Sequence record: JN673056
DNA from: Escherichia phage PhaxI
DNA: 64,000 bases
Reading direction: 5' to 3' (one strand)
Made by a program: the position numbers and the translations under genes
Shown: positions 1-59,297 of the stretch, piece by piece
Numbering within the stretch: the stretch's first letter is position 1
How the letters are laid out: the number at the start of each line of letters is the position of its first letter
Notes under the pieces: generated by a model
What the model was told of the DNA's origin: nothing
Seen by the model: the letters and a program-made list of their open reading frames with translations, nothing else
Database searches by the model: none

Positions 1-45
1 TTTGGATCTCAGACATCACTAATTTCCCCCAATATTATGGAGTAT

Positions 46-819
46 TTAGCGATCCGCCCAGATTCCTTTCTGTTCTTTATCCATTTTGTGATACAGGCGA
101 ACACGATCAAACATTTTAGAAATAACGTCTTTGCGATCGAATTCGATTATGGTGGGAACAAGGGCATTTTCGTTGGATATAATATTGATTAAACGCTCTA
201 TCTTAACATTAAACATCTGTTGAAACATGACTGAGTATAGGCACAATTGAATACTATAATCTTCTATCATGCTTCGAGTTTTCAGGGTGTTGGATGTTTT
301 GAAATCGATTATGCTAGGGATTCCCTCGTAAACGCCGATGAGGTCAACACGACCAGCAAGACCCAGGACTTCGCTATATAACGGAATCTCCTGTGCGTAT
401 ATCTTGCTCATTTTGTTCAGGTAGGGGAAGACCTGTTTAAACATAAACACGTATTCCCCTGCGGCTTCTAACACTTCCTTCATCGGCCTGTTTTTGAGAT
501 ACAACTCACAAGCCAAATGAAGTTTTTCCCCACGGTCTGCGCAACGATGTGTTTCTATATCAGCAGCTTCATGTCCCAACTTGTCCCGCCAGGCTTCTAA
601 CCATGTGTGGTCACCAGTACGCCCTAACATGGTCGTCACTGAAGTCAGTTTGACTCCAGTGGGAGAAACATAGTGACGACCATTTTCGGTAGTTACGCAA
701 GTCAGTTCCTTAAACGGCAAGGAATATTGCTGAAATGTATGATGACGATTTTCAAAGTCATTAAGTTTGCGCAAAGCCTGTAGAGAAACCATTACATCCC
801 ATCCAAATATTTTCGCCAA
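46..819 (-). CDS. PD-(D/E)xK nuclease-fold protein, possibly gp2-like DNA end protector
   Basis: 257-aa ORF; D...(I)DFK motif near C-terminus; overlaps the next gene as gp2/gp4 do in T4; position next to the head/tail module. Confidence 0.3.
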   Translation of the reverse strand: MAKIFGWDVMVSLQALRKLNDFENRHHTFQQYSLPFKELTCVTTENGRHYVSPTGVKLTSVTTMLGRTGDHTWLEAWRDKLGHEAADIETHRCADRGEKLHLACELYLKNRPMKEVLEAAGEYVFMFKQVFPYLNKMSKIYAQEIPLYSEVLGLAGRVDLIGVYEGIPSIIDFKTSNTLKTRSMIEDYSIQLCLYSVMFQQMFNVKIERLINIISNENALVPTIIEFDRKDVISKMFDRVRLYHKMDKEQKGIWADR

Positions 820-2468: not shown

Positions 2469-3197
2469 TTATTTCAGGGATTCTTTTAATGCTGGAGTCC
2501 CTATTTTGTCAATAACACCTCCGGCGCACAGATCTTTAGCCCATTCCGCGAGCACGTTAGCAAAAGAGAAATTCAAGCACTCTTTGATCATACTTTCAAT
2601 ATGAGCAAGTTCTGCAGCTATCCCATCGGTGATATCGTTTATAACTCCATTGACGGCGGTTATTGCCTCATTGATATGTCCTGTTACTTCAGCAGCCAAT
2701 TGCTGTAGTTTTGCCATCCCTTCTGAGGCACCTTCCATAATCATGTCATACAATTCCGATATCTTGTTAGTCACAGTCTGGAGAGCGCCTTCCATAGCAT
2801 TCAGCCATTGGCGTCCTAAATCCTGAACAACACCAAAAGCCTTGTTGATCAGATCACAATTGTTTGGTTCCCGTGATATACTTTTCAAACCTGATTTATA
2901 TGAAACGGAAGTCCCAATTCTTGAATACGCTTCATTTACACTCTGGTCGCCATATGTGTTCAGTGTCGTTATCCCCGTGTTGGCAGAGCTATACATGTTT
3001 GTGGCTGCTGTAAGTTTATCTGGTGTTAATCCACCTGCTGACATAGCCACCTGCATCTCCGGAGTCGCGTTGGCAGTTATCAATGGTATATTGGTACTAC
3101 CACTGGTGATTAAATCCTGTGAGGGACCGGAGAGGGACGGAAGCGGGTTGCTAAATGCATTACCAGAGGAAAGGACATCGTAGATTTGTGCGTTCAT
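2469..3197 (-). CDS. hypothetical protein
   Basis: 242-aa ORF; ATG start; late-promoter-like palindrome immediately upstream (3198-3228). Confidence 0.5.
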   Translation of the reverse strand: MNAQIYDVLSSGNAFSNPLPSLSGPSQDLITSGSTNIPLITANATPEMQVAMSAGGLTPDKLTAATNMYSSANTGITTLNTYGDQSVNEAYSRIGTSVSYKSGLKSISREPNNCDLINKAFGVVQDLGRQWLNAMEGALQTVTNKISELYDMIMEGASEGMAKLQQLAAEVTGHINEAITAVNGVINDITDGIAAELAHIESMIKECLNFSFANVLAEWAKDLCAGGVIDKIGTPALKESLK

Positions 3198-3227
3198 AAA
3201 AATACCCCCAATTTTGGGGGTATTTAA

Positions 3228-8804: not shown

Positions 8805-8811
8805 TATTTAG
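8805..8811 (-). promoter_or_regulatory. late-promoter-like motif CTAAATAC
   Basis: About 30 nt upstream of the scaffold gene ATG. Confidence 0.4.
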
Positions 8812-20626: not shown

Positions 20627-20688
20627 CCATGACTTTACCTCAATTTTGAAGGTATTTAGTCAATCATTAATTCTTTTGAGAATGATAA

Positions 20689-27167: not shown

Positions 27168-27174
27168 TATTTAG
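27168..27174 (-). promoter_or_regulatory. late-promoter-like motif CTAAATAT
   Basis: About 34 nt upstream of the 1612-aa gene, downstream of a terminator hairpin. Confidence 0.4.
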
Positions 27175-27200: not shown

Positions 27201-27226
27201 AAAAACCCCGCCTAAGCGGGGGTTTT
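27201..27226. terminator. hairpin terminator
   Basis: CCCCGC-CTAA-GCGGGG hairpin flanked by A-run and TTTTG. Confidence 0.55.
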
Positions 27227-27291
27227 GTTAAACAGTTACGTTATAATGTTTACTACATCATTAAAATATTGATTAATTTACTACTATGCTG

Positions 27292-29535
27292 TTAATCAGT
27301 ATACGCCATCAAGAACATAATAAGCTCATCATAGCGTACTCCGTACCTTACTCCTGCTGGTTTAACTATTACAACTTCTTCTAACGTTTCTGGATTAATG
27401 ATTATTTCAGAAGACGCTTCCCATTCGTCCTTGCACCAGAATGCGTAATCCTCTGGTTTAAGTCCGTGCTTTGTCAGGATAGAACCAACAGTTTGCGCAC
27501 CAACGCCGAAGTGGACTCGTGCAGACTCTTCTCCCTTAATTTCTATAGCGTCAGTAAACTTATAGCGAATAATATTATTGCGAATTTCATTAGCCGCTTC
27601 CCTTTCCGCACTCTCGTTTGTTGCTGGGGTTTTTACCTTCAGTGTTTCATCGGAGGTGCTTATTGTTCCCGTTGCAGCATAGACAACAGACCATCTATGT
27701 GATGTATATCCTAATACGGTCGTATTGTCTGTATCAGGCATAAATCCATTGTATCCACCAATCTTAAGGTCGCCATTTGGGTTTCCGGATGACGTTTTAC
27801 CATCATAACTTCTCAGAGTTACTCCTTTCGTTCCGGCAGTGGTATCTACCAAGATACCAGCGTTGGTAGAACCTAGAAGCTGAATTCCACTATTATCATT
27901 ACGCAAATCCTGCACAGGTGCTTCAAGTACAGTTGCTGTAAATTTCCATTTTGTATCGGAATAAAATTCAGCAGGTGAAGTATCATCACTTTGTATGATT
28001 ACCGCTTGTTTGCCAGATTCTCTTCTACGACACCAGCAATATTTTTCTGGGTTGGATCCCAGTTACTAGAGACAAGCACCCCATCAAATTCTACTAATGA
28101 TTCAAAAGGTTTACCTACTGCACGCGTTGGGGTTTGGGACAAAAATACCCCAGTTCCAATCAAAGAAATTGTTATACGTACCAACATTATCATCTATCTG
28201 ATACCCACGAGTGCATAATTCGCCAAAATAACCATAGAATCGCAAGTTACCAGCAACTTGGGTGTCACTGCTCACCCTTTTAACAACACGTACCGCACAA
28301 GGTACATCAGCAGGCCAAGTGCCTTGTGTGATGTTCTCTGAATGTCCACCGAATACGCGAAGGCTATCTGTACTTTCAATCCAGAAGCTACAGTTACCGG
28401 TTGCATGGTGCGGGTCGTATATATGAATGCGGGTATTATTATTATCGCCACTCTCTGATCGTTCGAAGAAGAAACCACAGTCAACACGTTCGAAGTTAGG
28501 ATTCATAATGGAATGGTAATAAGCACCACTATTGCTACCACCTACAGTTGGGCCAGGTTTGAACTTGATACCAATCTTAACACCACGTGCTCGTGGGTTC
28601 TCCATTACACAGAACTGCTGAGATACACGCACTGTTGTTTGAGTTTCATTTTCTGGTGCAATAGCATAGGCGATAACGTCAGTGTGGTTACTTGGGTTAA
28701 TTACTGTTGGATTTATAACGTGGCAGAAATCATGACTCATGCGAATACAGGTAATGTTATTGGCACCTGCCACAATCACTGTCCCAGTGAAATCCAGATA
28801 GCGAGTTGACATTACATCCTGGGTATATGAACCGTCAAATTTCATTACGAGGCTATTCGTAATGAGATACTTAGCCCCAGGTCTGCCAACCAACTTACCG
28901 AAAGGTATCCCCTCTAGCCACACTAATGCTTCCAACATTGAGGCAGTGTCATTAGTAACCCCATCTCCAATCGCACCAAACTCTTCAAATGATTTTATTG
29001 TAGTAACCCGATGGGCAATTTGGTCAATTGTTGGACCATACTTTGTTAGGTCAGTTATAAGAGACGTAGCCCCAACACTAACCCAAGCACCCACGCCAAT
29101 CCCGCCAGATTCTTCTGGTGTTGAACTGGCAGGTACACTTTTAGGCAATGCCCCATCCCAACGGTATCTACCATCTGTAAAAGTAACCAATTCATTCTTG
29201 GTATTAACAGTTACACCAGTAGAGAATGAACCAGGTAGAGTTACATACTCTTCACGAGTAACAGCTAATGCACCAAGGTCTACATTACCTCCAGAATGAA
29301 CCAATACACCAGCAGTATTAAGACTGACGGCAGTAGTACCAGCACCAAGGTCAGTAGGTAAGGAATAAGCTCTCTGTGTTACTTTATCATAGATGACTTT
29401 ATAGCCACTTAATACAGCACCGATAGAGAAGTAAACAACCTCAGATTGCTTAACTCCAAAGTGACGAGCTACTGCTTGCTTGTTGGTTAAGATTCCAGTT
29501 GAACCTTTTCCACCTTGTGAGAACAGTTCGTTCAT
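27292..29535 (-). pseudogene. tailspike/tail fiber gene with C-terminal intramolecular chaperone-like domain, apparently interrupted by two frameshifts
   Basis: Three ORF pieces: frame A 28111-29535, frame B 27999-28193, frame A again open from 28062 to 27292 with no ATG (track start is GTG at 27915); C-terminal piece has SDETLK and YGVRYDELIMFL, typical of autocleaving chaperone domains. Confidence 0.5.
28111..29535 (-). CDS. tailspike N-terminal/central portion (474-aa ORF)
   Basis: N-terminal domain VYFSIGAVLSGYKVIYDKVTQRAYSLP...YRWDG shared with the 1036-aa tailspike; beta-helix-like repeats. Confidence 0.6.
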   Translation of the reverse strand: MNELFSQGGKGSTGILTNKQAVARHFGVKQSEVVYFSIGAVLSGYKVIYDKVTQRAYSLPTDLGAGTTAVSLNTAGVLVHSGGNVDLGALAVTREEYVTLPGSFSTGVTVNTKNELVTFTDGRYRWDGALPKSVPASSTPEESGGIGVGAWVSVGATSLITDLTKYGPTIDQIAHRVTTIKSFEEFGAIGDGVTNDTASMLEALVWLEGIPFGKLVGRPGAKYLITNSLVMKFDGSYTQDVMSTRYLDFTGTVIVAGANNITCIRMSHDFCHVINPTVINPSNHTDVIAYAIAPENETQTTVRVSQQFCVMENPRARGVKIGIKFKPGPTVGGSNSGAYYHSIMNPNFERVDCGFFFERSESGDNNNTRIHIYDPHHATGNCSFWIESTDSLRVFGGHSENITQGTWPADVPCAVRVVKRVSSDTQVAGNLRFYGYFGELCTRGYQIDDNVGTYNNFFDWNWGIFVPNPNACSR

Positions 29536-29585
29536 ACATACCTCTTTGTTTTTCTAGTGATATCCCTCCGAAGAGGGGTATATTT

Positions 29586-32369
29586 TTAAATAGAAGAATC
29601 CAATATACGGTAACTAATTAACTTAGTAGGGTCTACAGGATTAATCAGGTTGTAGTACCGTGAAGATACATAATCATTCTCAGAAGAGAACATACCAACA
29701 TACACTTTAGCACCTACACCAGAACAGGCATCCCCACCAGCATTGCTATCCGAGAAGAATGTTAATGAGGAAGTTAATCCGAATATAGAATTAAATGGTA
29801 CGGCTAAATAAGCGCCTCGGAATGACCGTCTGATTCTCTTACCCGTCTGAATATTAAGAATACTCCACCAGAAATATCCAGGTTTAGCACCAATAGCTAT
29901 ATGATATGGTACACCACTTTGTAGTTTAAGGTCGTTAGGTAAATCCCCAGATAAAATTTGGGTTGTACCATCGCCCCCCAATAGCAAAGCAATTGTTTGT
30001 TTTCCAGAAGCGTCTATAACTAATTGAAGATGAAGACTGTTGGATGTATCACTAAACCCTGAACCAATGGCCATGAAGTTAAATACTTCAGCTCCAGATA
30101 TGGTAGGTACTACAACAGCAGCCATGGTAATACCTTCTGGACCTGCTGTTCTTGAATACAGTAATTTATCTTTGTTGGCTTGTGATAGTCTCAGACCATT
30201 TACTTGCCCTACAGAAGATGGGACACTTACATAAACAGGTGTAGTGCTAACACCATCAAATGTAGGGGTCTCGTTCATGGTTTGCAAACCAGTCTTGGAA
30301 TAATTAACCAATCCGTTAATGCTCAGGTCGGAATTGGTGGGGTTGATAATATTGTTATCACCAATAAAGTTAATGCCCATATAACCAGTCTCAACCACAC
30401 CATTAATGGTGACACTACAATCATTAGACAGGAACTGAAAATTGCCTGCACTAGAGTTAGCACCTGAACCACTATTCGCGGCATAATTGAGTCCTACGAA
30501 TCCGTTGATAACTGCATCGCTTTTGTTAAATACGATGTTGTAGAAAGTGTTGTTAGCATTGATGCCGTTACGATTGGTGTTCAATCCGTTCATGGAAATT
30601 GAATATGAATCGCTAATCTCAATGCCATTCCCGCCACAATCTTGTACCTCAATACCATTAATAACCATATTCTGGCTGTTATTAATAGTAATGCCTGGGA
30701 ACTGTCCTACTGTACCATAAGGTTGCCAGTTAGCCCAAATGAATTTACCGCCCAATAAATACGAACCATTACCACAACCATCAAGAACCAGACATTGTTT
30801 ACCGCAGGTATTAACCTGGATATTTGTCCAAGTCCAATCAGTAGTAGCACAACGGACACCCACCTGATTGATGTGGTTGACTAAAAGAGAATCTGTAGTA
30901 ACACTAAAGTTACCACTATCAATATTTAACCCATATTCATCAAAACCTGCTATATGGACCTTAGAAATACACAAGTCGCGTCTTGGGTCTGCGGTAGTGT
31001 GGAACGGATAATCGGCTGAGAGACCTGAAGGAGTTTCTACATAGATACCTGTTGTGCCCGCAGTAAATGGCATGCCTTGTTGTGCACCTGTGCCATATAC
31101 CCCAAAGGCGTCTAATACAATAAGGGAGCATGTATCTTTTATGGTAATACAATTCCCAGTAGCAGAAGGCAACTGATGCAACCTTGAGTAATGTAATCCA
31201 GACCCATAAATAGACGACGTATTATATTTTAACTGGATATTGCTAACGTAATGTGCATCAGTTAATTGTGTGGCCTTACCACTATCCACACAAGATTGTA
31301 CTGGAATAGTATCATCATTAGAACCACCCAAAGCACCAAACATGAATGGGTTAACTCTATCAGCATTAACACGTAACCATGCCGCGCCGCCAACAGTTTT
31401 GATCACAGTACCGTTATTATCAGTCTTTCCTGTACCATCAATTAACGCACGGAATACCCCTCCACCAAGAAGAGTACCCGCAGTGTGTTGCTTAAGAATA
31501 ATGCGTTGTCCATCCATAGTGGGTTCAGTATTCCTGAGATCAGCAACAGAATGGCATTCTCCAATATACTTGGCACCATCATTGCGCCCCAGAGTGTTTA
31601 TCACATTAATAAATGAATCCTCTAAAGGCAACAAATCAACCTGCACATCACCTGGGTTGTAATTCAATTTCCCAGCAGATACAGAAGAAATGACAGAACC
31701 ATCAGGAATGGTTGGTAAACCATAACTGGTTTGCGTCGCTATATCATAAACAACTTTCTTCCCATCCAACAAAGATATGGTGTCCGTACTAACGATGACT
31801 TCAGAGTCTTTTACATTAGCAGAACGGGCGATTTCTTGAATACTTCGGTCAAACGCCGGACTGATATTCGGTTGTTTAACAGACATTTCAGCGACTACCC
31901 AAACGCCTGCAGTCAGTGCAGTTTGCAAAGACACTTTCCCTGTCGTGCTGTTATAGGAATATTCAATTTCGGGTGTTTTGTACTCGCCACCGATATAAAG
32001 AGATTGGACACCATAGGATGTGAAATCAGGAGTGAACTCGGTTTCACCTCCCACGGCCTGAAATTTGTATATGCGGATACCTTTGGCTGTATCTTCTGGC
32101 GAAAGAATTTTATCGAATAAGCAATACACAACATCGCCTTTGGACAATGCGCGCCCGAGATTCAACGTATTTCCTTCGATTTCAAAGTTGTCTAACGGAA
32201 CTTGCATACCACCGTTGATTGTGACTACGCCAGTGACAGGATAGAACGGCAAGGAAAGGAAAGTTTCTCCACCAACATTTGATTTATACGTGAAAGGAAT
32301 CTGGTGGGGAGCTGTGATTACGCCGCCGAATAATTCTTCTACATTTCTGGTCATTTGAAAATACCCCAT
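29586..32369 (-). CDS. tailspike protein with right-handed beta-helix-like domain (927 aa)
   Basis: Asn/Gly/Ser-rich repeats such as NGIEISDSYSISMNGLNTNRNGINANN; related anchor segment near residue 170; CTAAATACCCC motif upstream. Confidence 0.65.
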   Translation of the reverse strand: MGYFQMTRNVEELFGGVITAPHQIPFTYKSNVGGETFLSLPFYPVTGVVTINGGMQVPLDNFEIEGNTLNLGRALSKGDVVYCLFDKILSPEDTAKGIRIYKFQAVGGETEFTPDFTSYGVQSLYIGGEYKTPEIEYSYNSTTGKVSLQTALTAGVWVVAEMSVKQPNISPAFDRSIQEIARSANVKDSEVIVSTDTISLLDGKKVVYDIATQTSYGLPTIPDGSVISSVSAGKLNYNPGDVQVDLLPLEDSFINVINTLGRNDGAKYIGECHSVADLRNTEPTMDGQRIILKQHTAGTLLGGGVFRALIDGTGKTDNNGTVIKTVGGAAWLRVNADRVNPFMFGALGGSNDDTIPVQSCVDSGKATQLTDAHYVSNIQLKYNTSSIYGSGLHYSRLHQLPSATGNCITIKDTCSLIVLDAFGVYGTGAQQGMPFTAGTTGIYVETPSGLSADYPFHTTADPRRDLCISKVHIAGFDEYGLNIDSGNFSVTTDSLLVNHINQVGVRCATTDWTWTNIQVNTCGKQCLVLDGCGNGSYLLGGKFIWANWQPYGTVGQFPGITINNSQNMVINGIEVQDCGGNGIEISDSYSISMNGLNTNRNGINANNTFYNIVFNKSDAVINGFVGLNYAANSGSGANSSAGNFQFLSNDCSVTINGVVETGYMGINFIGDNNIINPTNSDLSINGLVNYSKTGLQTMNETPTFDGVSTTPVYVSVPSSVGQVNGLRLSQANKDKLLYSRTAGPEGITMAAVVVPTISGAEVFNFMAIGSGFSDTSNSLHLQLVIDASGKQTIALLLGGDGTTQILSGDLPNDLKLQSGVPYHIAIGAKPGYFWWSILNIQTGKRIRRSFRGAYLAVPFNSIFGLTSSLTFFSDSNAGGDACSGVGAKVYVGMFSSENDYVSSRYYNLINPVDPTKLISYRILDSSI

Positions 32370-32386
32370 AAAGGATTTGCCAATAT

Positions 32387-32397
32387 GGGGTATTTAG
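32387..32397 (-). promoter_or_regulatory. late-promoter-like motif CTAAATACCCC
   Basis: Minus-strand CTAAATACCCC upstream of the 927-aa tailspike gene; embedded in inverted repeat AAATACCCCAT...ATGGGGTATTT. Confidence 0.45.
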
Positions 32398-32459
32398 GCT
32401 GAACTAATAAAATTTATAATAAGATCCCCCCGCTTTTGGCGAGGAGGGATGGTTGTTAA

Positions 32460-35400
32460 TCATATCAATCCGTAAATGACATTGTGTATTGCAATACCAC
32501 CAACAATAGAGGAAACATTGAAATTAATTTCAGCTTTGTAAGCTCCTGGCGGAACGCAATCCACCAAAGCATAAAAGTTGAACGTGTTTCCTACTGGGAT
32601 GTTATATCCTATGGAATCCGCGACAGCATTTCCTTGCTGGTCCAGGAATCTAATTGATGCCAGGGTGGTTGTTGTATTTTTAGCCCAAAAACCAAGTTGA
32701 AAATAACGCCCAGGCTCACAGTCAATGATTGTCTGGGTGAAATTAGCCGCTGCACCCACTGATGGTACGGATAAGACAAAAGAAGTTGAAAACATTAAAT
32801 CATTAGGGACATCATTTCCTACAGTAGCGGTGACAACGCCGGATCCAGTTTGTGACAGCGCCCAGTTAGATATATTATTAAACTGTCCTGAACCGTTACT
32901 AATACTGTTTATATGAGGGCTTACAATGCATCCTAAATCCCAGTTACTTGTGATAAATCCTGCGCGTGGATAGCAACCTCTAGACATTACTTTTTTACTT
33001 AATCCGCCTATCAACTGCCTTGTGGCAAATCCAGTAGCAATCGTTGTATTCCCATAGAGTGGTAGCGAACAATTATTTAGAATAACAACCCCATCCCCGT
33101 TGTTTACAATAGGTACTGTAGAATAATCATTTGGCAACAGTATCGTCGAATCACTGATGCTTAATCGTGAACTACCATCCACAGTAAACCCAACGAAACT
33201 CTGACCTGGTTGATACTCAATGTTACCGTTTGTGAAAACCATAGTTGCGTTATCAGATAACGCGACAACAGGGTCAAAATATCGTGATTTTTTTACTGCT
33301 GGCAGAGAGCAGCTATCGAATATAAATTGACCATTAACAAACGTGAAAGGTCCACCGTTGTCAACCATCCAACAATGATTAAATTTTATAACCTCACCGG
33401 AATTCGCTGGTGAATTGAAAATAACAGAATTTGTAAAACTTCTGGACAACGTACATTTATCAAAAAGAATACGATATGCATTATCAAGAAACTCAATTCC
33501 GGCAGTTGAGATAAACCCGCAATTAGATATTCTTAACTCTGAGACTTCTCCACTGGTAGAACCACCGATCGCCAATTTCCTGGTCCCTTTTCCAACAAAT
33601 GACACTCCAGTCATTAACGCAGTTGCGTTAATTACATCTCTATTGGTGTAATCCGTGTCTGTATTAACAATGGTTAGATAGTAGCCGCCCGTTGCAGATG
33701 CAGATTCTATTAGAGTACATTTATTTTTTCCAATAAGTGCACCTTTTGCTATATCAAAAATAATCGGTGTTGTTATCTCACCAGAAACAGGGACTACACA
33801 GTCAAATCCGACGGCATTTATTTTATTGATGAATATAGCCAAATCTCCGGTTCCTGTATAACCAGCTTCGTACACATCCACCACACCGTTGAATAATTTC
33901 CTTTTCCAAACGACACCATTGCCTTGGAAAGTAACGATATTATCTACCACAGTATCTGAGTTAACAGCCACCATAACACCGCCACCAAGATTAAACCCGT
34001 CAACATACGAATCAAGAATTATAGAATCACCAATTAATCCTGCTATTGATGATAATTCAGAAACTGATGATACGGTTCCTATATAAGATAAGCCATTCGG
34101 TTTATTTAAATTACTTTTCAGAGATGCAACACCAACACTCAACCATGCACCTAAACCAACGCCACCAGATGTTTCAGGTGTTGAGCCAGCATCGACAGTT
34201 TTAGGAAGTGAACCATCCCAGCGATACTTACCGTTCGTATGGGTGAGTAATTCATTTTTAGTATTGATGACAGCACCAGAATCAAATGTCCCAGACAAGG
34301 TAACATACTCTTCACGAGATACAGCTAATGCGCCCAGATCAACACTACCAGCAGAATGCACAAGCACAGCCGAAGAACTAAGGCTGACCGCCGTGGTTCC
34401 AGTCGGTAGCTCTGGAATAAAATATGATCTCTGTGTTACTTTATCATAGATAACTTTATACCCGCTTAACACTGCACCAACACTAAAATAAACAACCTCT
34501 GTATCTTTAACATTGGTTACACGAGCCACTTCCCGCAAAGTATAATCAATTTGATTATAGATGTTTGGCGTTCCATTGATAATTACAACAACTTCATCCT
34601 CTGCATCCAGTTCTTGCGCAAGAGTGATTTTACTGGTTAATGGATCGAATGTGAACCCCAGGTTTTTATACTGGCGACTTCCGTTTATATCAATGGCTGG
34701 AACATCATCGACAACGATGTCTAACGTGATTTCGGTTTCACCACCAATCGCAGAACCACCATTATAGACCCAGGTAATCGTAGAAGAACTAGAACCACCG
34801 CCATTACCCAATTGAATAGGAGTATATTCTATTACCTGCAATTCAGTGCTGGCTGGCAAAGAAGGACTGAAAGTGATTACATTCCCATCTAATGAATATT
34901 TGGATTCCGCAAGACGTTTTCCGTCAGCATACACGTCCACAATTGTTGGTGGAGTATTGAGAGTGACAGCACTTGTTTCAGACGCCAAAATTTGTGTAAA
35001 GATTTCACGACTGTAGACACGGCCTTGACCAAGACCGACGCCGGATGTGATAACCCAACCTTGTTCATGTCCAGACCAAGTGAACGTTGCTGAAACATTA
35101 TCAGTTGTTATAGCCATGTCTTCAGTGGAACCATACAAATTATTTCCAGAAGGAGACACGGTCAATGGGTAAGTGGCAAATTTCCCATAAGCATCACAAA
35201 TAGTAACGGAATCCCCAATACGCGTAGGGGAAGGGAGAACCACTGTAGATGTCCCTGTGGTATTATTAATGAGATATCCACGACCTTCTAACAAATTGCT
35301 AGAGGGAGCGTGAGGGAGCGTTTCCCAGCGTATTCCACCACCCCCCAAAGACAACCAACCACCGTTTTCGTAATAACCTTCAAATTCATCACTATCAGGA

Positions 35401-35570
35401 TTGTAACGCACAGAAGATGGAAGACCTGTAACTTCAGTATCTTCAGGAAATGTCATTACGGCACCAGGGGAATGCTCAATAGTGCCGGAGTTGTTGAAGC
35501 CTTTTATGTTCGAAGACTCAGAAGTTTCTAAACCCAAAGGGAAAAGAGGCTGTGTTGGTTTGTTGGCCAT
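32460..35570 (-). CDS. tailspike protein (1036 aa)
   Basis: Internal domain VYFSVGAVLSGYKVIYDKVTQRSYFIP...YRWDG nearly identical to the N-terminus of the 474-aa ORF; beta-helix-like repeats; CTAAATACCCC motif upstream. Confidence 0.65.
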   Translation of the reverse strand: MANKPTQPLFPLGLETSESSNIKGFNNSGTIEHSPGAVMTFPEDTEVTGLPSSVRYNPDSDEFEGYYENGGWLSLGGGGIRWETLPHAPSSNLLEGRGYLINNTTGTSTVVLPSPTRIGDSVTICDAYGKFATYPLTVSPSGNNLYGSTEDMAITTDNVSATFTWSGHEQGWVITSGVGLGQGRVYSREIFTQILASETSAVTLNTPPTIVDVYADGKRLAESKYSLDGNVITFSPSLPASTELQVIEYTPIQLGNGGGSSSSTITWVYNGGSAIGGETEITLDIVVDDVPAIDINGSRQYKNLGFTFDPLTSKITLAQELDAEDEVVVIINGTPNIYNQIDYTLREVARVTNVKDTEVVYFSVGAVLSGYKVIYDKVTQRSYFIPELPTGTTAVSLSSSAVLVHSAGSVDLGALAVSREEYVTLSGTFDSGAVINTKNELLTHTNGKYRWDGSLPKTVDAGSTPETSGGVGLGAWLSVGVASLKSNLNKPNGLSYIGTVSSVSELSSIAGLIGDSIILDSYVDGFNLGGGVMVAVNSDTVVDNIVTFQGNGVVWKRKLFNGVVDVYEAGYTGTGDLAIFINKINAVGFDCVVPVSGEITTPIIFDIAKGALIGKNKCTLIESASATGGYYLTIVNTDTDYTNRDVINATALMTGVSFVGKGTRKLAIGGSTSGEVSELRISNCGFISTAGIEFLDNAYRILFDKCTLSRSFTNSVIFNSPANSGEVIKFNHCWMVDNGGPFTFVNGQFIFDSCSLPAVKKSRYFDPVVALSDNATMVFTNGNIEYQPGQSFVGFTVDGSSRLSISDSTILLPNDYSTVPIVNNGDGVVILNNCSLPLYGNTTIATGFATRQLIGGLSKKVMSRGCYPRAGFITSNWDLGCIVSPHINSISNGSGQFNNISNWALSQTGSGVVTATVGNDVPNDLMFSTSFVLSVPSVGAAANFTQTIIDCEPGRYFQLGFWAKNTTTTLASIRFLDQQGNAVADSIGYNIPVGNTFNFYALVDCVPPGAYKAEINFNVSSIVGGIAIHNVIYGLI

Positions 35571-35603
35571 TTGTAATACCCCTAAATGTATTCATGTCAT
35601 CTA

Positions 35604-35614
35604 GGGGTATTTAG
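35604..35614 (-). promoter_or_regulatory. late-promoter-like motif CTAAATACCCC
   Basis: Minus-strand CTAAATACCCC upstream of the 1036-aa tailspike gene; inverted repeat with TAATACCCCTA at 35574-35584. Confidence 0.45.
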
Positions 35615-35616
35615 TT

Positions 35617-36807
35617 TTAGAAAGAAGCTGCAATAGAATAGTCGACAGAACAAGCAGTTGTCGTGTTTGCATTAACAACGGAAATTCTCAATTTACCACC
35701 CACCACAGCCCCTGTGAACGTCACTGTACCGCTCGTACTTTTCTGAACCAACAACTCTGTTTTGATCGTTCCGTCACGAGTTATGGTTACTCGATATGTG
35801 TCAACAACGTTACCTGTCCCCCATTGCGCAGTTACCAGTATTTGACAAAGGTTCACCAAATCAAAATCTGGAAGAGCCGTCGTTCCAGAAGCCGAAACCG
35901 TGTATGACGACAAATTCGTTTTGGTACGATAAACGGCGTTCCCCAAACTATTGTCGATAGAGGTCATCTTGGCATTATACGTTGATACACTAACTTTATC
36001 ACTGGAAAGAGAACTGATGCTGTTATCCAGAGATGTCATCTTCGTGTTGTACGTGCTAACCTCGACTTTATTACCCAGAGACGTATTGATATTGGAGATA
36101 CTCAAATCCAATGACGCCATCTTAGTGTTGTAAGTCGAGGTGTTGACTTTCCCGTTCAACGACGTGTTGATGTTATTAATCTGGGACTCTAAACTCAGCA
36201 TATCTGCATCATACGCTGTCGTTGTCACATATCCATTAAATCGGTTATCTGCAAACAACGCATCAAAAAATGCAGTCATTGTCCAATAATGCGCTCCAGA
36301 ATCTGTTTGTACTGGAACTGAAGTCGGCAACGTTGGTCCGGTATACGCAGACAATCTGGTGAAATCCAAATTGAATTTGTAATATCCGGATGTCAACAAC
36401 TCCCCAGCCAAACCAGAACCAGGCGGGGTAGTGTCTTCACTGACGCCATGCTTTCTCAACATGCTCAGGTTAACACCATCTGTTGAGTTCGTTGGTTCAT
36501 CTGTTATTGAAACAGATTTTCCGGCGGGAACTTGTATGCCCCCATTGGTCACCAACAACGCATTGAAAGTCTTTTTACCATTGATCGTTTGCTCGCCACT
36601 ATCTGTCCGAATAACTTTGTTAGCCAGAGTATCGTTGATTGTGTCAACAGATCTTTTCAACTCATAAGTCAGACGAGCAGAAGGCGGAAACAATGGGTCA
36701 CTAACTTCAAAATCATCAATGACGTCGTTTTTACTTACTTTGTCGTCAACAGAACCCAATATCTGATCTATCTGCTGACCTGTATATTGACTCAGAAATC
36801 GGGCCAT
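35617..36807 (-). CDS. tail fiber-like protein with tandem coiled-coil repeats (396 aa)
   Basis: Four repeats of about 24 aa of the form VxxSTYNTKMxSLDxSISN; SD AAGGAG. Confidence 0.55.
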   Translation of the reverse strand: MARFLSQYTGQQIDQILGSVDDKVSKNDVIDDFEVSDPLFPPSARLTYELKRSVDTINDTLANKVIRTDSGEQTINGKKTFNALLVTNGGIQVPAGKSVSITDEPTNSTDGVNLSMLRKHGVSEDTTPPGSGLAGELLTSGYYKFNLDFTRLSAYTGPTLPTSVPVQTDSGAHYWTMTAFFDALFADNRFNGYVTTTAYDADMLSLESQINNINTSLNGKVNTSTYNTKMASLDLSISNINTSLGNKVEVSTYNTKMTSLDNSISSLSSDKVSVSTYNAKMTSIDNSLGNAVYRTKTNLSSYTVSASGTTALPDFDLVNLCQILVTAQWGTGNVVDTYRVTITRDGTIKTELLVQKSTSGTVTFTGAVVGGKLRISVVNANTTTACSVDYSIAASF

Positions 36808-37638: not shown

Positions 37639-39403
37639 AGCGCACCTCTGGCGTAACAACCACATCACCAATCTTGAATACTTGGTTTTGTGTAGCCTGT
37701 ATGTTCTGGTTCAGTCCATCCGGTAACACGACTATGGTCACCCCTTCAGGGTTATAGTTAGAGACCGTGATCTGCTGAAGGTCTACAACCCCATTTGCAT
37801 AATCCACAACCCCTGTTTTTTGAACTAAAAACTCTTTTGTCGTGTCATTGTTATTCACTTTATACATGTTCAGATCGCCATTATCGTCGCGCATGTAGTA
37901 AGTGAAATCCACCTCGGCAGGAAGCGGTTTGAACCCCGTTATTTTCACAGAACCAGGTTTGATACTTCGTCCATAACTGAATGTGAAACTGTCTAAGGCT
38001 CCATAATCAGGTTTGAAATGGCGTTTATAACCAACTGAAGTAATATTCGAGTTGATAGAACGTTCCATTTTTGTAATTGCTTCCTGCAATATTTCTTTGT
38101 CAAACAATTGGTCAAATCCGCCGAGATTATTTTCACCCCATTTAACGATACTGTTTCCAACAACAACTTTCATCTGTTCTTCAACGTAGACTGTAGAAGT
38201 AGGATCCCAAAATATAGTCGTTGAGACTTGGATATATGTGATCTCGGAATCTACCACTTTGGGGGTGATAGATCCCACATTATACTTGTCCAGAGCAGCA
38301 ACGATATCGGCCTTCTCAGCGTCCGAAAGTGTCTCACCAACAGAAGGTATAACAGCGATGTAAACATAGCCAGAATCAGGAGGAGACAGCGTGTCACCAC
38401 CATATGATTTAGCTCGGGAGACGTTGGAGAATAACCTTTCAGTCAATACACCATAATCTGTTTCTGTAACCGCAGCACCATCAGCCTGATAAGCTAAAGG
38501 AGCCAACCGTTTAGTGTCCTCAATAGATTCCGGATCGTCCCCACCTGCGCTACGTTCGGAAACCAATTCTACATCGACCTGGTTAAACCCGCCTATGGAT
38601 GACGCTGATGACAGGCTTGTGATATCATTCCCATCAGCACCAGAAGTTTCTAAGTATTGAAGGAATATGACGTTCCCATCTTCTACTCGACGCGAAAGAT
38701 AACCATCTCCAAATTCAAACACATACAGACCGTCAATACCCAATTCTACGAAATACAGGTAGGCATATTGGCTCAGATCAAATGGAATGTTGTAACGTTG
38801 ATATGTCGTCGAAACGTCGGAAGACTCTGATTCTTGTACTTGCACGACCATATGATTGATATCGACATTCCCAGAAGGAATCGTGTATGTTGAAATCGCG
38901 CTTCCTTCAACATCATATGTCTTGTACAACCAATTCCCCTGTATCAACTTTACATTATTGAACATGTAATAACCGTCTGCGGTCAACGTTGCCGACACTG
39001 GTTTCTCAACAGTAAAGTTGTAGGAACTGCCGTCTTTTGCCCCAACGAACATCACACGCCGATCCATGATGATCTCATTGGGGGCTGTGCTGGCGTCATA
39101 AGGCGTAACTTTGATGTTGACATACATGTATGCTGCCCGATAGTTGTCAGGCGTGTAGGAAAGAAATGCAGCAGATAAACCGACGTTTGAACGTTGATTT
39201 GCTGTCTTCAAATGGCCTTCACCATTAAGCATGTTTTGCATAAAGGCTATGGCGTTCGCGTCAGATGCCAACAAACGAATAATCGCACTAAGACCAGAAC
39301 CTTCAAAGTCATAATCTTTAAAGGTGGGATCAGCTTTCATTCGCTGTTTAATAATGTATTCAAATGCTCTGACGTCGAGTGAAGGAACTGTTTGCGTGGC
39401 CAT
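37622..39403 (-). CDS. gp6: baseplate wedge protein, T4 gp6-like
   Basis: FKDYDFEGSGLSAIIRLLA matches T4 gp6 FLDYDFEGSRLNVLCDLLA; GGDDPESIEDTKRLAP matches GGGDPEDIERIRELGT; ATG at 39403 with SD GGAG (track start 39454 is TTG). Confidence 0.8.
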   Translation of the reverse strand: MATQTVPSLDVRAFEYIIKQRMKADPTFKDYDFEGSGLSAIIRLLASDANAIAFMQNMLNGEGHLKTANQRSNVGLSAAFLSYTPDNYRAAYMYVNIKVTPYDASTAPNEIIMDRRVMFVGAKDGSSYNFTVEKPVSATLTADGYYMFNNVKLIQGNWLYKTYDVEGSAISTYTIPSGNVDINHMVVQVQESESSDVSTTYQRYNIPFDLSQYAYLYFVELGIDGLYVFEFGDGYLSRRVEDGNVIFLQYLETSGADGNDITSLSSASSIGGFNQVDVELVSERSAGGDDPESIEDTKRLAPLAYQADGAAVTETDYGVLTERLFSNVSRAKSYGGDTLSPPDSGYVYIAVIPSVGETLSDAEKADIVAALDKYNVGSITPKVVDSEITYIQVSTTIFWDPTSTVYVEEQMKVVVGNSIVKWGENNLGGFDQLFDKEILQEAITKMERSINSNITSVGYKRHFKPDYGALDSFTFSYGRSIKPGSVKITGFKPLPAEVDFTYYMRDDNGDLNMYKVNNNDTTKEFLVQKTGVVDYANGVVDLQQITVSNYNPEGVTIVVLPDGLNQNIQATQNQVFKIGDVVVTPEVRYVQRS

Positions 39404-39443
39404 GATAATCTCCATCACCTGAGTTTGAATATGGTGTTGAAGA

Positions 39444-39450
39444 TATTTAG
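39444..39450 (-). promoter_or_regulatory. late-promoter-like motif CTAAATAT
   Basis: About 41 nt upstream of the gp6-like ATG at 39403. Confidence 0.4.
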
Positions 39451-39766
39451 CCAACGGGAATCAAAACGCTCGCGCGCGTTTAATTTATTCGAATATACTC
39501 GCGAGGGGGCTGACGCCCTCGCTCGTAACACCGCCTTGACAGGCAGTCCCATTCCGCAGCCATGGAGGCTGCTTCTCGTTGTTCGTTAACACTCACAACT
39601 CGAAGGGCACCGCGTTAAGATACAGTTTCTTGATGTTGTAGAAAAGTAGTTTTTACCTATTAATAATCACTGTCATTATTTTATTGGCCATTCCTGCGTT
39701 TATATTCAATAAACGTATCCCCAATATAATAATGGAGACATTTAATCAATTCGGTGAGGCTCCGGA

Positions 39767-43583: not shown

Positions 43584-43689
43584 AACACAATGAGAGAAAC
43601 TGAAGTGAGAAAGCTCGGTTAAACGAGGGAGTAATTCAGGAGTATCTCACCACTAAATAAACCAGTTGTTCAATAAACAATTGGTGAGT

Positions 43690-43890
43690 ATGATGAAAAC
43701 GTTCGGTGATTTTCTTACTGAGTGGGATGGTCTCGCTACCGACAACAAAGAGATTGTTGAGTTTGTTGAAAAGCGAGGCGATAAGTGGGTTGTCCTTGAC
43801 CACACCAAGACTAAAGTTCTTGGGACACATGACACCAAAGCTGACGCGGACGCCCAATTAAGGGCGATCGAAGCGAATAAACATAGTTGA
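43690..43890 (+). CDS. hypothetical small protein (66 aa)
   Basis: ATG at 43690 with SD GGTGAG; CTAAATA motif about 35 nt upstream; sits inside the RNA island. Confidence 0.4.
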   Translation: MMKTFGDFLTEWDGLATDNKEIVEFVEKRGDKWVVLDHTKTKVLGTHDTKADADAQLRAIEANKHS

Positions 43891-45258: not shown

Positions 45259-45297
45259 TCTATAATAAATAGATCTGACTTGTAAAGGAGGTCTATT

Positions 45298-45531
45298 ATG
45301 GCAACTGCTAAGATCACACCAAACGCAAGTACATGGACGCAAGTCTCAGACGGCACATCTTTGAAAACTCTTCAAGTGACTCACGGTTCTGTGTATCTGT
45401 GTGATAGCCCCAGCGCTCCAACGGGTAACAACGCGCATATCATATATCAAGGAAATATGGTCGTTTTAACCCCGCCGACGGTGGGATGGGTTAAGGCAAT
45501 TAATTCTGATGCGACGGTTATCGTTTCTTAA
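45298..45531 (+). CDS. hypothetical small beta-rich protein
   Basis: 77 aa; SD AAAGGAGG; TATAAT-like element upstream. Confidence 0.5.
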   Translation: MATAKITPNASTWTQVSDGTSLKTLQVTHGSVYLCDSPSAPTGNNAHIIYQGNMVVLTPPTVGWVKAINSDATVIVS

Positions 45532-48185: not shown

Positions 48186-48196
48186 CTAAATACCCC
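48186..48196 (+). promoter_or_regulatory. late-promoter-like motif CTAAATACCCC
   Basis: Exact CTAAATACCCC about 23 nt upstream of the ATG at 48219; part of inverted repeat ATACCCCA...TGGGGTAT. Confidence 0.45.
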
Positions 48197-48218
48197 ATAC
48201 GACCAGTGTGGGGTATCT

Positions 48219-48668
48219 ATGAAAACCTTTCTAGAATTTTATCGCGAATCAACGTTACCTGATTTTACGAATATCGTTTTGTATCATGGGTCTAATGTTG
48301 AATTCGATATATTTGATTTTGAAAAATTTGGCCAGACTGACTCTGGTACGATGGGTGCTGGATTTTACCTGACAGGGGATCCAGAAAAGGCACAGATCTA
48401 CGCAGAAAATGCCGTGCGCTATCGTCAATCTGGTGAACCTGTTGTCATGGCATTTCGTGTTAAGGCCAAGAAGACTCTTGTAATAGATTCCAACAATGTT
48501 TCGGTGTGGGAAAATAAAATGCGAGAGTTGGGGATAAAGCCTGGTAAGATACATGATAATGTGAAAGAACTTGTCAACAAAGGGTTCGATTCTATAGCCT
48601 CTATGAGTGCCAATAACGTTGAGGAAATGGTGGTGTTTAAGCCAGGGCTGGCGACCAGAGAAGCCTAA
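48219..48668 (+). CDS. hypothetical protein with ADP-ribosyltransferase-like motif arrangement (speculative)
   Basis: 149 aa; LYHGS ... GAGFYLT ... VEEMVVF spacing resembles H-Y-E class ADP-ribosyltransferases; CTAAATACCCC motif upstream. Confidence 0.35.
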   Translation: MKTFLEFYRESTLPDFTNIVLYHGSNVEFDIFDFEKFGQTDSGTMGAGFYLTGDPEKAQIYAENAVRYRQSGEPVVMAFRVKAKKTLVIDSNNVSVWENKMRELGIKPGKIHDNVKELVNKGFDSIASMSANNVEEMVVFKPGLATREA

Positions 48669-59093: not shown

Positions 59094-59129
59094 TATAAAT
59101 ATCCTCACCTATAAAGTGAGGATATTATC

Positions 59130-59297
59130 ATGTTACAAGATCTGTTGGTGTACGCGCTTCCTGGCGTTGTTGTCGGCTTCGTAGCTGGCGCTCTGGTCTT
59201 CCGTAAACACGCGCAAGACGGTGAAGTGATTGTTCAGAAGGGTAAAGACATCCTGGAACAAATCGAAGCCAAACTGGACGAGCTGAAGAAAAAGTAA
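59130..59297 (+). CDS. small membrane protein (55 aa), not in ORF track
   Basis: ATG at 59130 with SD GAGGA; LVYALPGVVVGFVAGALVF hydrophobic helix; terminator downstream. Confidence 0.4.
   Translation: MLQDLLVYALPGVVVGFVAGALVFRKHAQDGEVIVQKGKDILEQIEAKLDELKKK

Follow-up and report, generated by a model that had tools for sequence, protein, structure and literature searches.

About half of the T4-style late promoters in a Kuttervirus phage lie in a predicted hairpin arm that pairs with the ribosome-binding region of the downstream gene

About half of the T4-style late promoters in the window (the whole analysed stretch, 64,000 nt of Escherichia phage PhaxI, sequence record JN673056) lie in one arm of a predicted hairpin, whose other arm holds the following gene's ribosome-binding site. 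We consider it likely that such an element is a gp55-dependent late promoter and a translational lock of the downstream gene in one. By analogy with T4, the hairpin-bearing genes are probably translated only from their own late transcript. The layout of the elements, their predicted folds, their site-specific complementarity and their conservation with covariation were observed directly. The mechanism is known from T4. It is newly recognised here in another phage family and was not previously described for CBA120-like phages.

The window belongs to the genus Kuttervirus (Ackermannviridae), and its nearest relatives are FEC14 (98% identical) and CBA120. The heptamer CTAAATA was found 17 times on the two strands of the window, compared with 7.57 ± 2.58 times in dinucleotide shuffles, and none of 100 shuffles reached 17. 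The strand of the copies matched the gene orientation: 14 of the 17 were located 15–50 nt 5' of a co-oriented start codon, for which 2.6% of positions qualify (binomial p = 4e-20). The published motif of ViI-like phages, CTAAATAcCcc (in full CTAAATACCCC), had three exact matches: 32387-32397 (-), 35604-35614 (-) and 48186-48196 (+). When up to two mismatches were allowed, there were 33 matches vs 11.8 expected. The nearest genome, FEC14, has annotated homologues of T4's late transcription proteins gp55, gp33 and gp45. The original prediction had called the motif T4-late-promoter-like and had named a lack of enrichment over background as part of what would speak against it. The enrichment of (C/T/A)TAAATA, its co-orientation with genes, its position 15–50 nt before start codons and the FEC14 homologues all support a gp55-type late promoter box.

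The hairpin form with the Shine-Dalgarno sequence (SD) in the 3' arm was found at 10 of the 19 sites of the window that combine TAAATA with a start codon. On the sense strand, the order of parts was the same at the four inverted repeats of the original prediction and at six more sites: stop codon, TAAATA, C-rich 5' arm, loop, SD-bearing 3' arm, 4–9 nt and ATG. The box had the form (C/T)TAAATA with a C-rich 5' arm, and the SD was GGGGT, GAGGA or GGAG. The elements and neighbouring features were as follows.

14..49 (-): promoter-hairpin of a UvsW-like helicase gene cut off by the left window end; CTAAATA 43-49, overlapping the stop codon of the exonuclease gene; ATG 14-16; CUCCA pairs with UGGGG (SD region)
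3195..3227 (-): promoter-hairpin of gene 2469-3197 (phrog_289/2114, no assigned function); TTAAATA 3221-3227; ATG 3195-3197; 5' arm 3215-3225, 3' arm 3200-3210 (GGGGGTATTT)
20628..20659 (-): remnant hairpin-type promoter (CTAAATACCTTCAA/TTGAGGTA) with a 7-codon stub of the gp14 start
32352..32397 (-): promoter-hairpin of the TSP2-like tailspike gene (29586-32354); CTAAATA 32391-32397; ATG 32352-32354; 5' arm 32384-32395 (AAATACCCCATA), 3' arm 32359-32370 (TATGGGGTATTT) including SD GGGGT; -20.8 kcal/mol, z = -3.6
32426..32446 (-): separate terminator-like hairpin (CTCCTCGCCAAAAGCGGGGGG) with a T-rich tail, located past the TSP4-like stop codon (32460) and ahead of the TSP2-like promoter-hairpin
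35568..35614 (-): promoter-hairpin of the TSP4-like tailspike gene (32460-35570); CTAAATA 35608-35614; ATG 35568-35570; 5' arm 35598-35611, 3' arm 35575-35588 including SD GGGGT
39401..39450 (-): promoter-hairpin of the gp6-like baseplate wedge gene; CTAAATA 39444-39450; ATG 39401-39403; 5' arm 39433-39444 (ATCTTCA.CACC), 3' arm 39408-39419 (GGTG.TGGAGAT) including SD GGAG
43653..43695 (+): promoter-hairpin of a 65-aa gene after a tRNA; CTAAATA 43653-43659; arms 43661-43670 and 43676-43685; ATG 43693-43695; alternative pairing of CTCACCA 43646-43652 with TGGTGAG 43682-43688
45265..45300 (+): weaker promoter-hairpin of the 77-aa gene 45298-45531; ATAAATA 45265-45271; 5' arm AUAGAUCU pairs with AGGUCUAU, overlapping SD AGGAGG; -8.6 to -10.7 kcal/mol, with a small opening-cost contrast
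48186..48221 (+): promoter-hairpin of gene 48219-48668 (no assigned function); CTAAATA 48186-48192; ATG 48219-48221; 5' arm 48190-48200, 3' arm 48206-48216 (TGGGGTAT) including the SD
59095..59132 (+): promoter-hairpin of the 55-aa gene 59130-59297; (T)ATAAATA 59095-59101; ATG 59130-59132; 5' arm 59098-59108 (AATATCCTCAC), 3' arm 59116-59126 (GTGAGGATATT) including SD GAGGA

All four inverted repeats that had been reported with the motif in one arm were present: 3200-3211 / 3214-3225 and 32359-32370 / 32384-32395 (both 12 nt, 100% complementary), 35575-35588 / 35598-35611 (14 nt, 93%) and 48184-48200 / 48206-48222 (17 nt, 82%). They had been placed upstream of structural genes, which applies to the two tailspike sites (TSP2-like and TSP4-like); the genes behind the other two have no assigned function. 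The identity of the 3' arm with the SD of the downstream gene had been overlooked, and the hairpin-type sites at 43-49 (-), 43653 (+), 45265 (+) and 59095 (+) were missing from the earlier list. For the TSP2-like gene, the second in-frame ATG agrees with the annotated length of TSP2 in CBA120 and FEC14. The UvsW-like helicase matched T4 UvsW (2OCA) with E = 9.5e-76. Outside the window, the same element precedes the endolysin gene and the RuvC-like Holliday-junction resolvase gene of FEC14. PHROG annotation left most of the hairpin-regulated genes without an assigned function, and an Rfam scan of the window at the gathering threshold returned three tRNAs only and no family at the hairpin elements.

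Further late-promoter boxes of the window had no SD-covering hairpin.

3425-3432 (-): late-promoter box TATAAATA
8805..8811 (-): heptamer before the scaffold gene
10023-10029, 12829-12835, 15631-15637, 19882-19888, 27168-27174 (all -) and 48665-48671 (+): heptamers of the same class as 8805..8811

Eight sites had been described earlier as carrying the heptamer alone. All eight are real, with the heptamer ending 19–42 nt before the ATG, but the site at 39444 does have a hairpin, which contains a G.U pair.

We infer the late start position (from T4 geometry), the occurrence of read-through transcripts and an effect on translation. In the proposed RNA hairpin, the 5' strand would consist of the (C/T)TAAATA box plus the C-rich bases that follow, and the 3' strand of the SD and spacer of the immediately downstream gene. 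Transcripts entering from upstream (early/middle transcripts or read-through from an upstream late gene) would carry both strands, fold and hide the ribosome-binding site, and the gene would not be translated from such RNA. Late transcripts from the gene's own promoter would begin ~6 nt after TAAATA, lack the 5' strand and leave the ribosome site open. Translation would thereby be tied to the firing of the gene's own late promoter. Within the window, this would concern the tailspikes, the gp6 wedge protein, UvsW and several small genes that lie amid early regions; outside it, the endolysin and the Holliday-junction resolvase would be affected as well.

The T4 TATA box precedes the transcription start by about one helical turn (PMC2988020). 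With this geometry, the late start would fall inside or 3' of the 5' strand. Late RNA could therefore not contain the hairpin, and the suggestion that the palindrome is a transcript-stabilising hairpin does not fit the gene's own transcripts. The expected start position is robust for the relatives L042 and L043 at the gene 48219-48668 element, since their 5' arm is placed wholly upstream of the box. Each element is preceded at 0–60 nt by the end of a co-oriented gene, mostly with no terminator-like site in between; read-through transcripts are hypothetical. The literature searched contained no mapped transcription start sites for any Ackermannviridae phage.

The sense-strand RNAs of the four cited sites folded at -18.9 to -20.8 kcal/mol (z -3.6 to -5.1 vs shuffles). 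Among the 19 TAAATA sites, the read-through RNAs of 10 placed the SD in the 3' arm of a fold of -10 to -21 kcal/mol, and these stable in silico helices over the SD and/or AUG had z values of -3.6 to -6.1. RNAs cut to begin 6 nt after TAAATA reached only -0.5 to -7 kcal/mol. The cost of opening the stretch from SD through AUG at hairpin sites was 15.1 kcal/mol in read-through RNA vs 5.9 kcal/mol in late RNA; at non-hairpin sites, it was 5.7 vs 3.6 kcal/mol. The contrast in SD unpaired probability was modest (0.07 vs 0.29), and the opening energy was the clearer measure. Even for late RNAs, the models predicted the G-rich SD to be unpaired only ~29% of the time, a point against the translational lock.

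The promoter-proximal segments paired better with their own SD region (mean -9.3 kcal/mol) than with non-cognate ones (-4.9 kcal/mol; permutation p ~1e-5). Pairing at or below -12 kcal/mol was found at 7 of the 19 sites vs 5.1% of pseudo-sites, which were matched for distance and taken from genes without TAAATA (p = 2.6e-5). These cognate/non-cognate and distance-matched tests replaced a plain comparison of genes with and without TAAATA, in which SD-occlusion energies did not differ significantly (Mann-Whitney p = 0.09; with a -6 kcal/mol cut-off, Fisher p = 0.056). SD-covering structures also occurred at some genes without TAAATA (46884, 22010 and 11719).

Adriaenssens et al. reportedly introduced CTAAATAcCcc in 2012 as a 'unique regulatory motif' of ViI-like phages. 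The passage of PMC7283392 that gives it as a regulatory motif of these phages lists it without a link to inverted repeats, SD or translation; the elements here have the same sequence, genus group and kind of position, and such a link. In the window, the motif falls into two halves: CTAAATA, the promoter part, occurs at all sites, and cCcc, the anti-SD part, is confined to hairpin sites. The six bases after TAAATA contained 3.1 C at hairpin sites vs 0.8 at non-hairpin sites (p = 3e-5). Non-hairpin sites resembled T4 late promoters (PMC2988020) in being AT-rich there. As a corollary of the translational lock, 'cCcc' would be the anti-SD arm and stand outside promoter recognition.

At the sites followed across relatives, a set without the UvsW site, the hairpins persisted in Ackermannviridae loci down to 50% protein identity: stems were kept and loops changed. 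Across genera, the helix was kept through compensatory changes and changes that preserve G·U pairing, and 95.6–99% of alignment cells were paired. The TSP4-like element was kept in 18 related loci to 50% protein identity with a variable loop, and orthologues of the gene 48219-48668 element varied in the loop only. Some relatives carry TATAAATA at the gene 2469-3197 element. One stem pair of the 55-aa gene element was A-U, G.U or G-C depending on the relative. In the gp6-like element, a U.G pair became C-G in two distant relatives (L018 and L021), and at the 65-aa gene element, where relatives have three A-to-G substitutions within the 3' arm, every single change gave a U.G pair. The endolysin stem exchanged (U.G, C-G) for (C-G, U.G). 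In the resolvase stem, double changes from A-U to G-C and from A-U to U-A were joined by a compensating inserted G:C pair, and 8 of 500 shuffles reached its covariation score. All four 'unpaired' cells of the resolvase alignment came from the misplacement of this insertion (L167/L170 type) by MAFFT. The stems were near-invariant within orthologous groups because the arms are separately constrained, one as promoter and one as SD, and shuffle covariation tests are thus low in power; for the 55-aa gene element and the endolysin, nearly all columns were invariant and these controls were uninformative. In L042 and L043, the promoter sits in the loop of a different SD-covering hairpin: a 15-bp stem flanks it, and the 3' arm covers GAGGA (-26.5 kcal/mol, z = -5.0).

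The closest known system is that of the T4 genes e (lysozyme), soc, 49 and I-TevI, in which a late promoter lies within a hairpin that sequesters the ribosome-binding site (PMC3014915). As there, the 5' strand of an RNA helix, here a predicted one, is encoded by DNA that contains a late promoter of the TATAAATA type. In T4, the helix sequesters the SD and/or AUG in the longer early RNA, and late RNA lacks this strand; the same is predicted here. The gene classes also match: endolysin corresponds to e, Holliday-junction resolvase to 49 and UvsW to the late-regulated uvsW. The elements here differ in family (Ackermannviridae), in box (mostly CTAAATA) and in extent, with ~12 genes per genome (~40% of the predicted late promoters) vs four classic T4 cases. 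Moreover, the late structural cluster contains some of the genes (tailspikes, gp6), and the box (AAATA) is usually paired with the post-SD spacer (TATTT). While the T4 lysozyme mechanism is proven by experiment, the elements here are known from sequence and predicted folds.

Two other systems share parts of the design. Homing-endonuclease genes such as Aeh1 mobE and T4 segB have RBS-sequestering hairpins (cited in PMC3014915). An SD-occluding hairpin keeps read-through RNA untranslated there, as is predicted here, but the hairpins as described are not generally made from the promoter box. PeSL (promoter-early stem-loop) cassettes of T4-like phages consist of a terminator and an early sigma-70 promoter and were proposed as recombination mediators (PMC2839356, PMC4122927). 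Like these, the elements here are short, repeated, intergenic composites of promoter and stem-loop that adjoin variable genes, and cassette repeats do occur beside the variable tailspike genes. Unlike PeSLs, they have a late-type promoter and a stem that is not terminator-like and includes the downstream SD, so they do not belong to that class.

The PeSL precedent (PMC4122927) bears on the tailspike cassettes, which might mainly be short homology patches for module swapping, a reading that is compatible with a translational role. Near-identical cassettes (CTAAATACCCCATATTGG...TATGGGGTAT) stand before different tailspike genes in different genera, tailspike content differs among the window, FEC14 and CBA120, and the breakpoints are intergenic. 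We nevertheless regard this as unlikely: tailspike exchange has been ascribed to conserved 5' coding domains (PMC11414711), and the same architecture is found at the non-modular single-copy genes for endolysin, resolvase and UvsW. Somewhat less probable still is an action of the hairpins on the upstream mRNA, as intrinsic terminators or 3'-end exonuclease blocks that the promoter merely overlaps; of the tenable forms of the original transcript-stabilising idea, this comes nearest. Every hairpin does lie directly 3' of the stop codon of a co-oriented upstream gene, and short U runs follow those of the 3195..3227 and 32352..32397 elements. Most have no U tract (35613, 48187, 59096, 39449, 43654), however, loops are up to 17 nt long, against 3–8 nt for intrinsic terminators, and the terminator scan called none of the promoter hairpins, so they do not class as Rho-independent terminators. 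The TSP2-like promoter-hairpin is not the terminator of the upstream gene, because that gene is already followed by the distinct terminator-like hairpin at 32426..32446. An action on upstream mRNA also leaves unexplained why an SD is present in every 3' arm and why the SD-covering stem was rebuilt around the promoter in L042 and L043.

The original prediction had also offered a protein-binding site. Several arms are perfect 12-nt DNA palindromes that overlap the promoter box, as would suit duplex-DNA sites of a dimeric late-transcription regulator or cruciform-forming sequences. We think this very improbable. Stem sequences differ by site and have in common only the promoter and SD sequences, not a palindrome consensus, the arms are 2 to 17 nt apart (loops 4–17 nt), and compensatory changes preserve pairing, not sequence. 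G.U wobbles likewise preserve pairing, yet are mismatches in DNA, and in 8 of 10 site families the sense RNA was stabler than its antisense counterpart (Wilcoxon p = 0.007). There is just as little to expect from the complementarity being a by-product, with promoters ending in CCCC pairing by chance with G-rich SDs. Complementarity is inherent in the cores CCCC/GGGG and CCTC/GAGG, and non-cognate pairing was also strong among the four CCCC sites. Against this stand the excess of cognate over non-cognate pairing, the compensatory substitutions and the compensatory insertion. The pairing also runs 3–8 bp past the core on both sides in a site-specific manner (CAT/ATG, CAA/TTG, CTAG/CTAG, CAUAC/GUGUG), and non-hairpin genes lack both the C-rich tract of the promoter and the box-pairing TAT(T)(T) behind the SD.

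Gene regulation in Ackermannviridae is almost uncharted. The CBA120 genome paper did not identify a late promoter (PMC3184105), and a family review from 2024 makes no mention of promoters. Members such as CBA120, ViI and LIMEstone are in wide use for biocontrol and tailspike engineering. If the promoter-hairpins act as translational locks, they would provide a concrete late-promoter map for the family, account for the C-rich tail of its signature motif and predict a set of late-translation-locked genes: endolysin, resolvase, UvsW, tailspikes and several small uncharacterised genes. Inserting or swapping a tailspike gene without the upstream arm, or behind a foreign promoter, would then alter its translation, which calls for caution in phage engineering. 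The mechanism of T4 gene e would be an ancestral or recurrent design that reaches past T4-like phages.

The two tailspike sites and the gp6 site are located within or at the head of the late gene cluster, where silencing of early read-through is a less obvious rationale. Speculatively, and improbably in our view, the promoter-hairpin could be a general 'translational insulator' module of Ackermannviridae, marked by CTAAATAcCcc, with a role beyond guarding against early read-through. The output of each gene would then be set by its own promoter alone, even inside late operons (tailspikes, gp6), and the stoichiometry of the branched tailspike complex would be governed in this way. The unit of promoter, hairpin and gene would be a self-contained portable cassette, indifferent to a new transcriptional context.

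The heptamer at 20653 had been assigned to a downstream gene. The heptamer is real, but only a 7-codon remnant of the gp14 start follows it; this remnant (20628..20659) was left by the insertion of the + strand ORF 19916-20626.

The heptamer CTAAATA occurred 17 times in the window against an expected 7.6 ± 2.6, and at least 17 copies were seen in 0 of 100 shuffles. The motif is hence enriched over background. Its strand tracked gene orientation: 14 of the 17 copies had a co-oriented start codon 15–50 nt downstream, a placement that only 2.6% of positions would satisfy (p = 4e-20). The 11-mer CTAAATACCCC had three exact copies and, with up to two mismatches, 33 matches vs 11.8 expected. PMC7283392 gives CTAAATAcCcc as a published motif. 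The four inverted repeats of the original prediction were present, with arms of 12 nt (100%), 12 nt (100%), 14 nt (93%) and 17 nt (82%), and the eight sites listed there with the heptamer alone were all real. The predicted folds of the sense RNAs of the four repeats had −18.9 to −20.8 kcal/mol (z −3.6 to −5.1).

While the inverted-repeat context holds, the original prediction overlooked that the 3' arm contains the Shine-Dalgarno sequence (SD) of the downstream gene. On the sense strand, the sites shared one order: the preceding gene ends with its stop codon, and then come (C/T)TAAATA with a C-rich stretch (5' arm), a loop of 4–17 nt, the 3' arm and ATG. In the 3' arm, the SD (GGGGT, GGGGGT, GAGGA or GGAG) precedes TAT(T)(T), and 4–9 nt separate the arm from the ATG. 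All 19 TAAATA-plus-start sites of the window were folded. At 10 of them, the predicted structure was a hairpin (−10 to −21 kcal/mol), its 5' arm starting in or just after TAAATA and the SD lying inside its 3' arm.

Predicted promoter-hairpin sites in the window
3195–3227 (−), inverted repeat of the original prediction
32352–32397 (−), inverted repeat of the original prediction
35568–35614 (−), inverted repeat of the original prediction
48186–48221 (+), inverted repeat of the original prediction
43–49 (−), precedes UvsW homologue
39444 (−), precedes gp6
43653 (+), from the fold
45265 (+), from the fold
59095 (+), box TATAAATA, arms ATATCCTCAC / GTGAGGATAT
20653 (−), remnant, from the fold

The UvsW homologue matched 2OCA (E = 9.5e-76); T4 uvsW is expressed late. 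Five hairpin genes are of unknown function: a 242-aa gene (2469–3197) and those starting at 43693, 45298, 48219 and 59130. The start codon at the elements 32352–32397 (−) and 39401–39450 (−) was taken as the second in-frame ATG because of the annotated protein lengths in Escherichia phage FEC14 and CBA120. At the TSP2-like tailspike gene (32354–32369) and the FEC14 resolvase gene (L132 45653–45678), an in-frame ATG lay within the 3' arm, 12–15 nt before the likely start, and annotators differ over which ATG to use. In T4, gene 49 with a start pair of this kind yields a nested pair of proteins.

Positions 30000–36000 of the window were 98.3% identical to FEC14 and 97% to CBA120 (both Kuttervirus, Ackermannviridae). 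Mapping to FEC14 gave leftward genes at 1–39450 (uvsW, uvsY, head, portal, sheath, terminase, neck, tailspikes, baseplate) and mostly rightward genes from ~39700 (tRNAs, DNA polymerase, many small genes). The four hairpin genes starting at 43693, 45298, 48219 and 59130 sit in this rightward region. Homologues of gp55, gp33 and gp45, the T4 late-transcription proteins, are encoded in FEC14.

The pairing was more than CCCC meeting GGGG. The promoter-proximal segment paired with its own SD region at a mean of −9.3 kcal/mol and with the SD of other sites at −4.9 (permutation p ~1e-5). Values of −12 kcal/mol or lower were reached in 7 of 19 sites vs 5.1% of pseudo-sites (p = 2.6e-5), which were distance-matched and lay 5' of genes without TAAATA. 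In a crude test, genes having TAAATA did not differ significantly from those lacking it. Inner stem extensions were site-specific, but complementary (CAT/ATG, CAA/TTG, CTAG/CTAG, CAUAC/GUGUG, CCTCAC/GTGAGG). The hexamer after TAAATA was C-rich at hairpin sites only (3.1 vs 0.8 C of 6, p = 3e-5), and the bases following the box were AT-rich at non-hairpin promoters, a feature of T4 late promoters too (PMC2988020). For these reasons, the cCcc of CTAAATAcCcc is better explained as an anti-SD arm than as a promoter component, which gives this family signature motif a new interpretation.

In four protein-anchored IMG/VR scans, loci of Ackermannviridae were recovered with protein identity as low as 50%. 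The hairpins 5' of TSP4, TSP2, gp6 and the genes starting at 48219, 43693 and 59130 were kept in relatives; stems persisted, while loops varied in sequence and length. In the element 59095–59132 (+), one stem pair was A-U in the window, G.U in eight sequences and G-C in L121; the adjoining pair was C-G or U.G, and 99% of cells were paired overall. The gp6 stem changed from U.G to C-G in L018 and L021, and the element 43653–43695 (+) showed three independent A-to-G changes, each yielding U.G. The formal power to detect covariation was low because the stems are so conserved. Owing to the G.U pairs, 8 of 10 site families had a sense RNA more stable than the antisense RNA (Wilcoxon p = 0.007). This points to a sense-strand RNA structure rather than a DNA palindrome.

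The most telling comparative case came from L042 and L043, orthologues of the element 48186–48221 (+). Here, a 15-bp stem GGUUCUCAGUGUGG / CCACACUGAGGAUC surrounds the promoter, which lies in the 16-nt loop, and GAGGA is still under the 3' arm (−26.5 kcal/mol, z = −5.0). The 5' arm is entirely upstream of the box and would therefore be absent from a late transcript at any exact start site. In L024, a natural deletion located ~70 nt 5' of the orthologue of the gene starting at 45298 (window equivalent 45265–45280) removed the TAAATAGAT promoter and the 5' arm and left the SD and the gene intact, a natural "unlocked" variant.

The remaining 92.6 kb of FEC14 contained eight more TAAATA-plus-start sites, two of which had a strong hairpin. 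These precede the endolysin (TTAAATACCTTCGCA / TGCGGAGGTATTT, −18 kcal/mol, z = −6.1) and a RuvC-like Holliday-junction resolvase (CTAAATACCCATAAC / GTTATGGGTATTT), and both were kept in ~20 related loci. The endolysin stem was 98.7% paired, with changes that swap wobbles. The resolvase stem showed the double changes A-U to G-C and A-U to U-A (observed score reached in 8 of 500 shuffles), and L167-type sequences had a compensating inserted G:C pair.

The T4 late TATA box is 8 bp long and located about one helical turn 5' of the start site (PMC2988020). With this geometry, a late transcript would therefore begin ~6 nt after TAAATA, within or beyond the 5' arm. Such an RNA would lack the full 5' arm, while in read-through RNA from upstream the hairpin would form and sequester the ribosome-binding site. 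RNAs modelled from ~6 nt after TAAATA folded at only −0.5 to −7 kcal/mol. The predicted cost of opening the SD through the AUG was 15.1 kcal/mol in read-through and 5.9 kcal/mol in late RNA at hairpin sites, compared with 5.7 and 3.6 kcal/mol at non-hairpin sites.

In T4 e, soc, 49 and I-TevI, experiments placed the late promoter in DNA encoding the 5' strand of a helix that sequesters the ribosome-binding site; read-through RNA made early is not translated (~100-fold lower for e), whereas late RNA is (PMC3014915). The window sites have the same arrangement, known here from sequence and predicted folds, and the late-promoter box, the predicted helix over the SD and its maintenance in evolution, features of this class that are open to sequence analysis, were found. 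In function, FEC14 endolysin and resolvase correspond to T4 e and 49, both among the four textbook cases, and the rightward region with tRNAs and DNA polymerase is the kind of setting where T4 uses this device. The elements are thus probably T4-type late promoters combined with a translational lock. A weak point of the read-through-silencing rationale is that hairpins also occur within the late cluster (tailspikes, gp6). If correct, a classic T4 mechanism would extend to a second family, with roughly 12 genes per genome. Within the searchable literature, we found no mapped transcription starts for Ackermannviridae and no description of such promoter-hairpin elements in them. The CBA120 genome paper did not identify a late promoter (PMC3184105), the papers on AG3 and LIMEstone go no further than lists of predicted promoters and terminators, and a 2024 Ackermannviridae review mentions neither promoters nor hairpins.

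It is unlikely that the hairpins serve the upstream mRNA instead. None of the promoter hairpins was terminator-like in scans, and a separate terminator-like hairpin already lies upstream of the element 32352–32397 (−). Stabilisation of a 3' end would leave the constant SD in the 3' arm unexplained. A DNA-binding palindrome, the protein-binding role of the original prediction, is disfavoured by the variable arm spacing, the lack of a common arm sequence and the wobble pairs in the stems. At the tailspike cassettes, a PeSL-like function in module exchange (precedent in PMC4122927) may exist alongside the translational role, as near-identical cassettes precede different tailspike genes.

Tailspike cassette content differed from close relatives at 27209–29548 and 32355–32460. 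The former had no homology to FEC14 and encodes a Tail_spike_N protein (28111–29535) and an endosialidase/chaperone fragment (27292–27915). Between the genes for the TSP4-like and the TSP2-like tailspike, TSP3 (CBA120 orf212) was missing. At 32415–32425 (−), the sequence TATAAATT is close to the T4 box consensus; it follows the terminator-like hairpin and precedes the CTAAATACCCC promoter of the TSP2-like gene. Transcripts from this box, if it is active, would carry the whole TSP2-like hairpin.

Two insertions relative to FEC14 were seen. The + strand ORF 19916–20626 encodes CapR and T5orf172/MUG113 (GIY-YIG-related) domains and resembles an insertion of the homing-endonuclease type. The gp14 promoter and start were duplicated on both sides of it (20610–20659 / 19857–19889, −): the remnant copy retained a hairpin-type promoter and seven codons, and the functional start has an AT-rich promoter and no hairpin. 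The second (~850 bp, 12815–13665) contains the + ORF 12877–13665 with no Pfam match, adjoining a GIY-YIG endonuclease gene (12351–12809, −) with its own CTAAATA promoter (12829).

SD-covering structures also occurred without TAAATA. At 46814–46886 (+), 5' of a widely conserved 431-aa gene (46884–48179), the hairpin ACTCCTGTAGA...TCTACAGGAGA (−25 kcal/mol) buries the SD. Its 5' arm starts at a TATACT (−10-like) box, so the promoter-in-5'-arm design may extend to another promoter class. At 11720–11790 (−), the SD of the portal gene is covered by long-range pairing GTCCTCGG...TTGAGGAC, inside which lies a terminator-like hairpin, GGGGGAATGTTATTCCCCC.

The second published ViI-like motif, TTCAAT-N14-TATAAT, was present as TTCAATAAA-N11-TATAAT and is presumably an early promoter. 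Exact copies were found at 39705–39730 and 54707–54732 (both +) and near-matches at 43669, 46064, 59317 and 62302 (+). With up to two mismatches, there were 23 matches vs 11.4 expected, and the good ones all pointed rightward into the + strand gene block.
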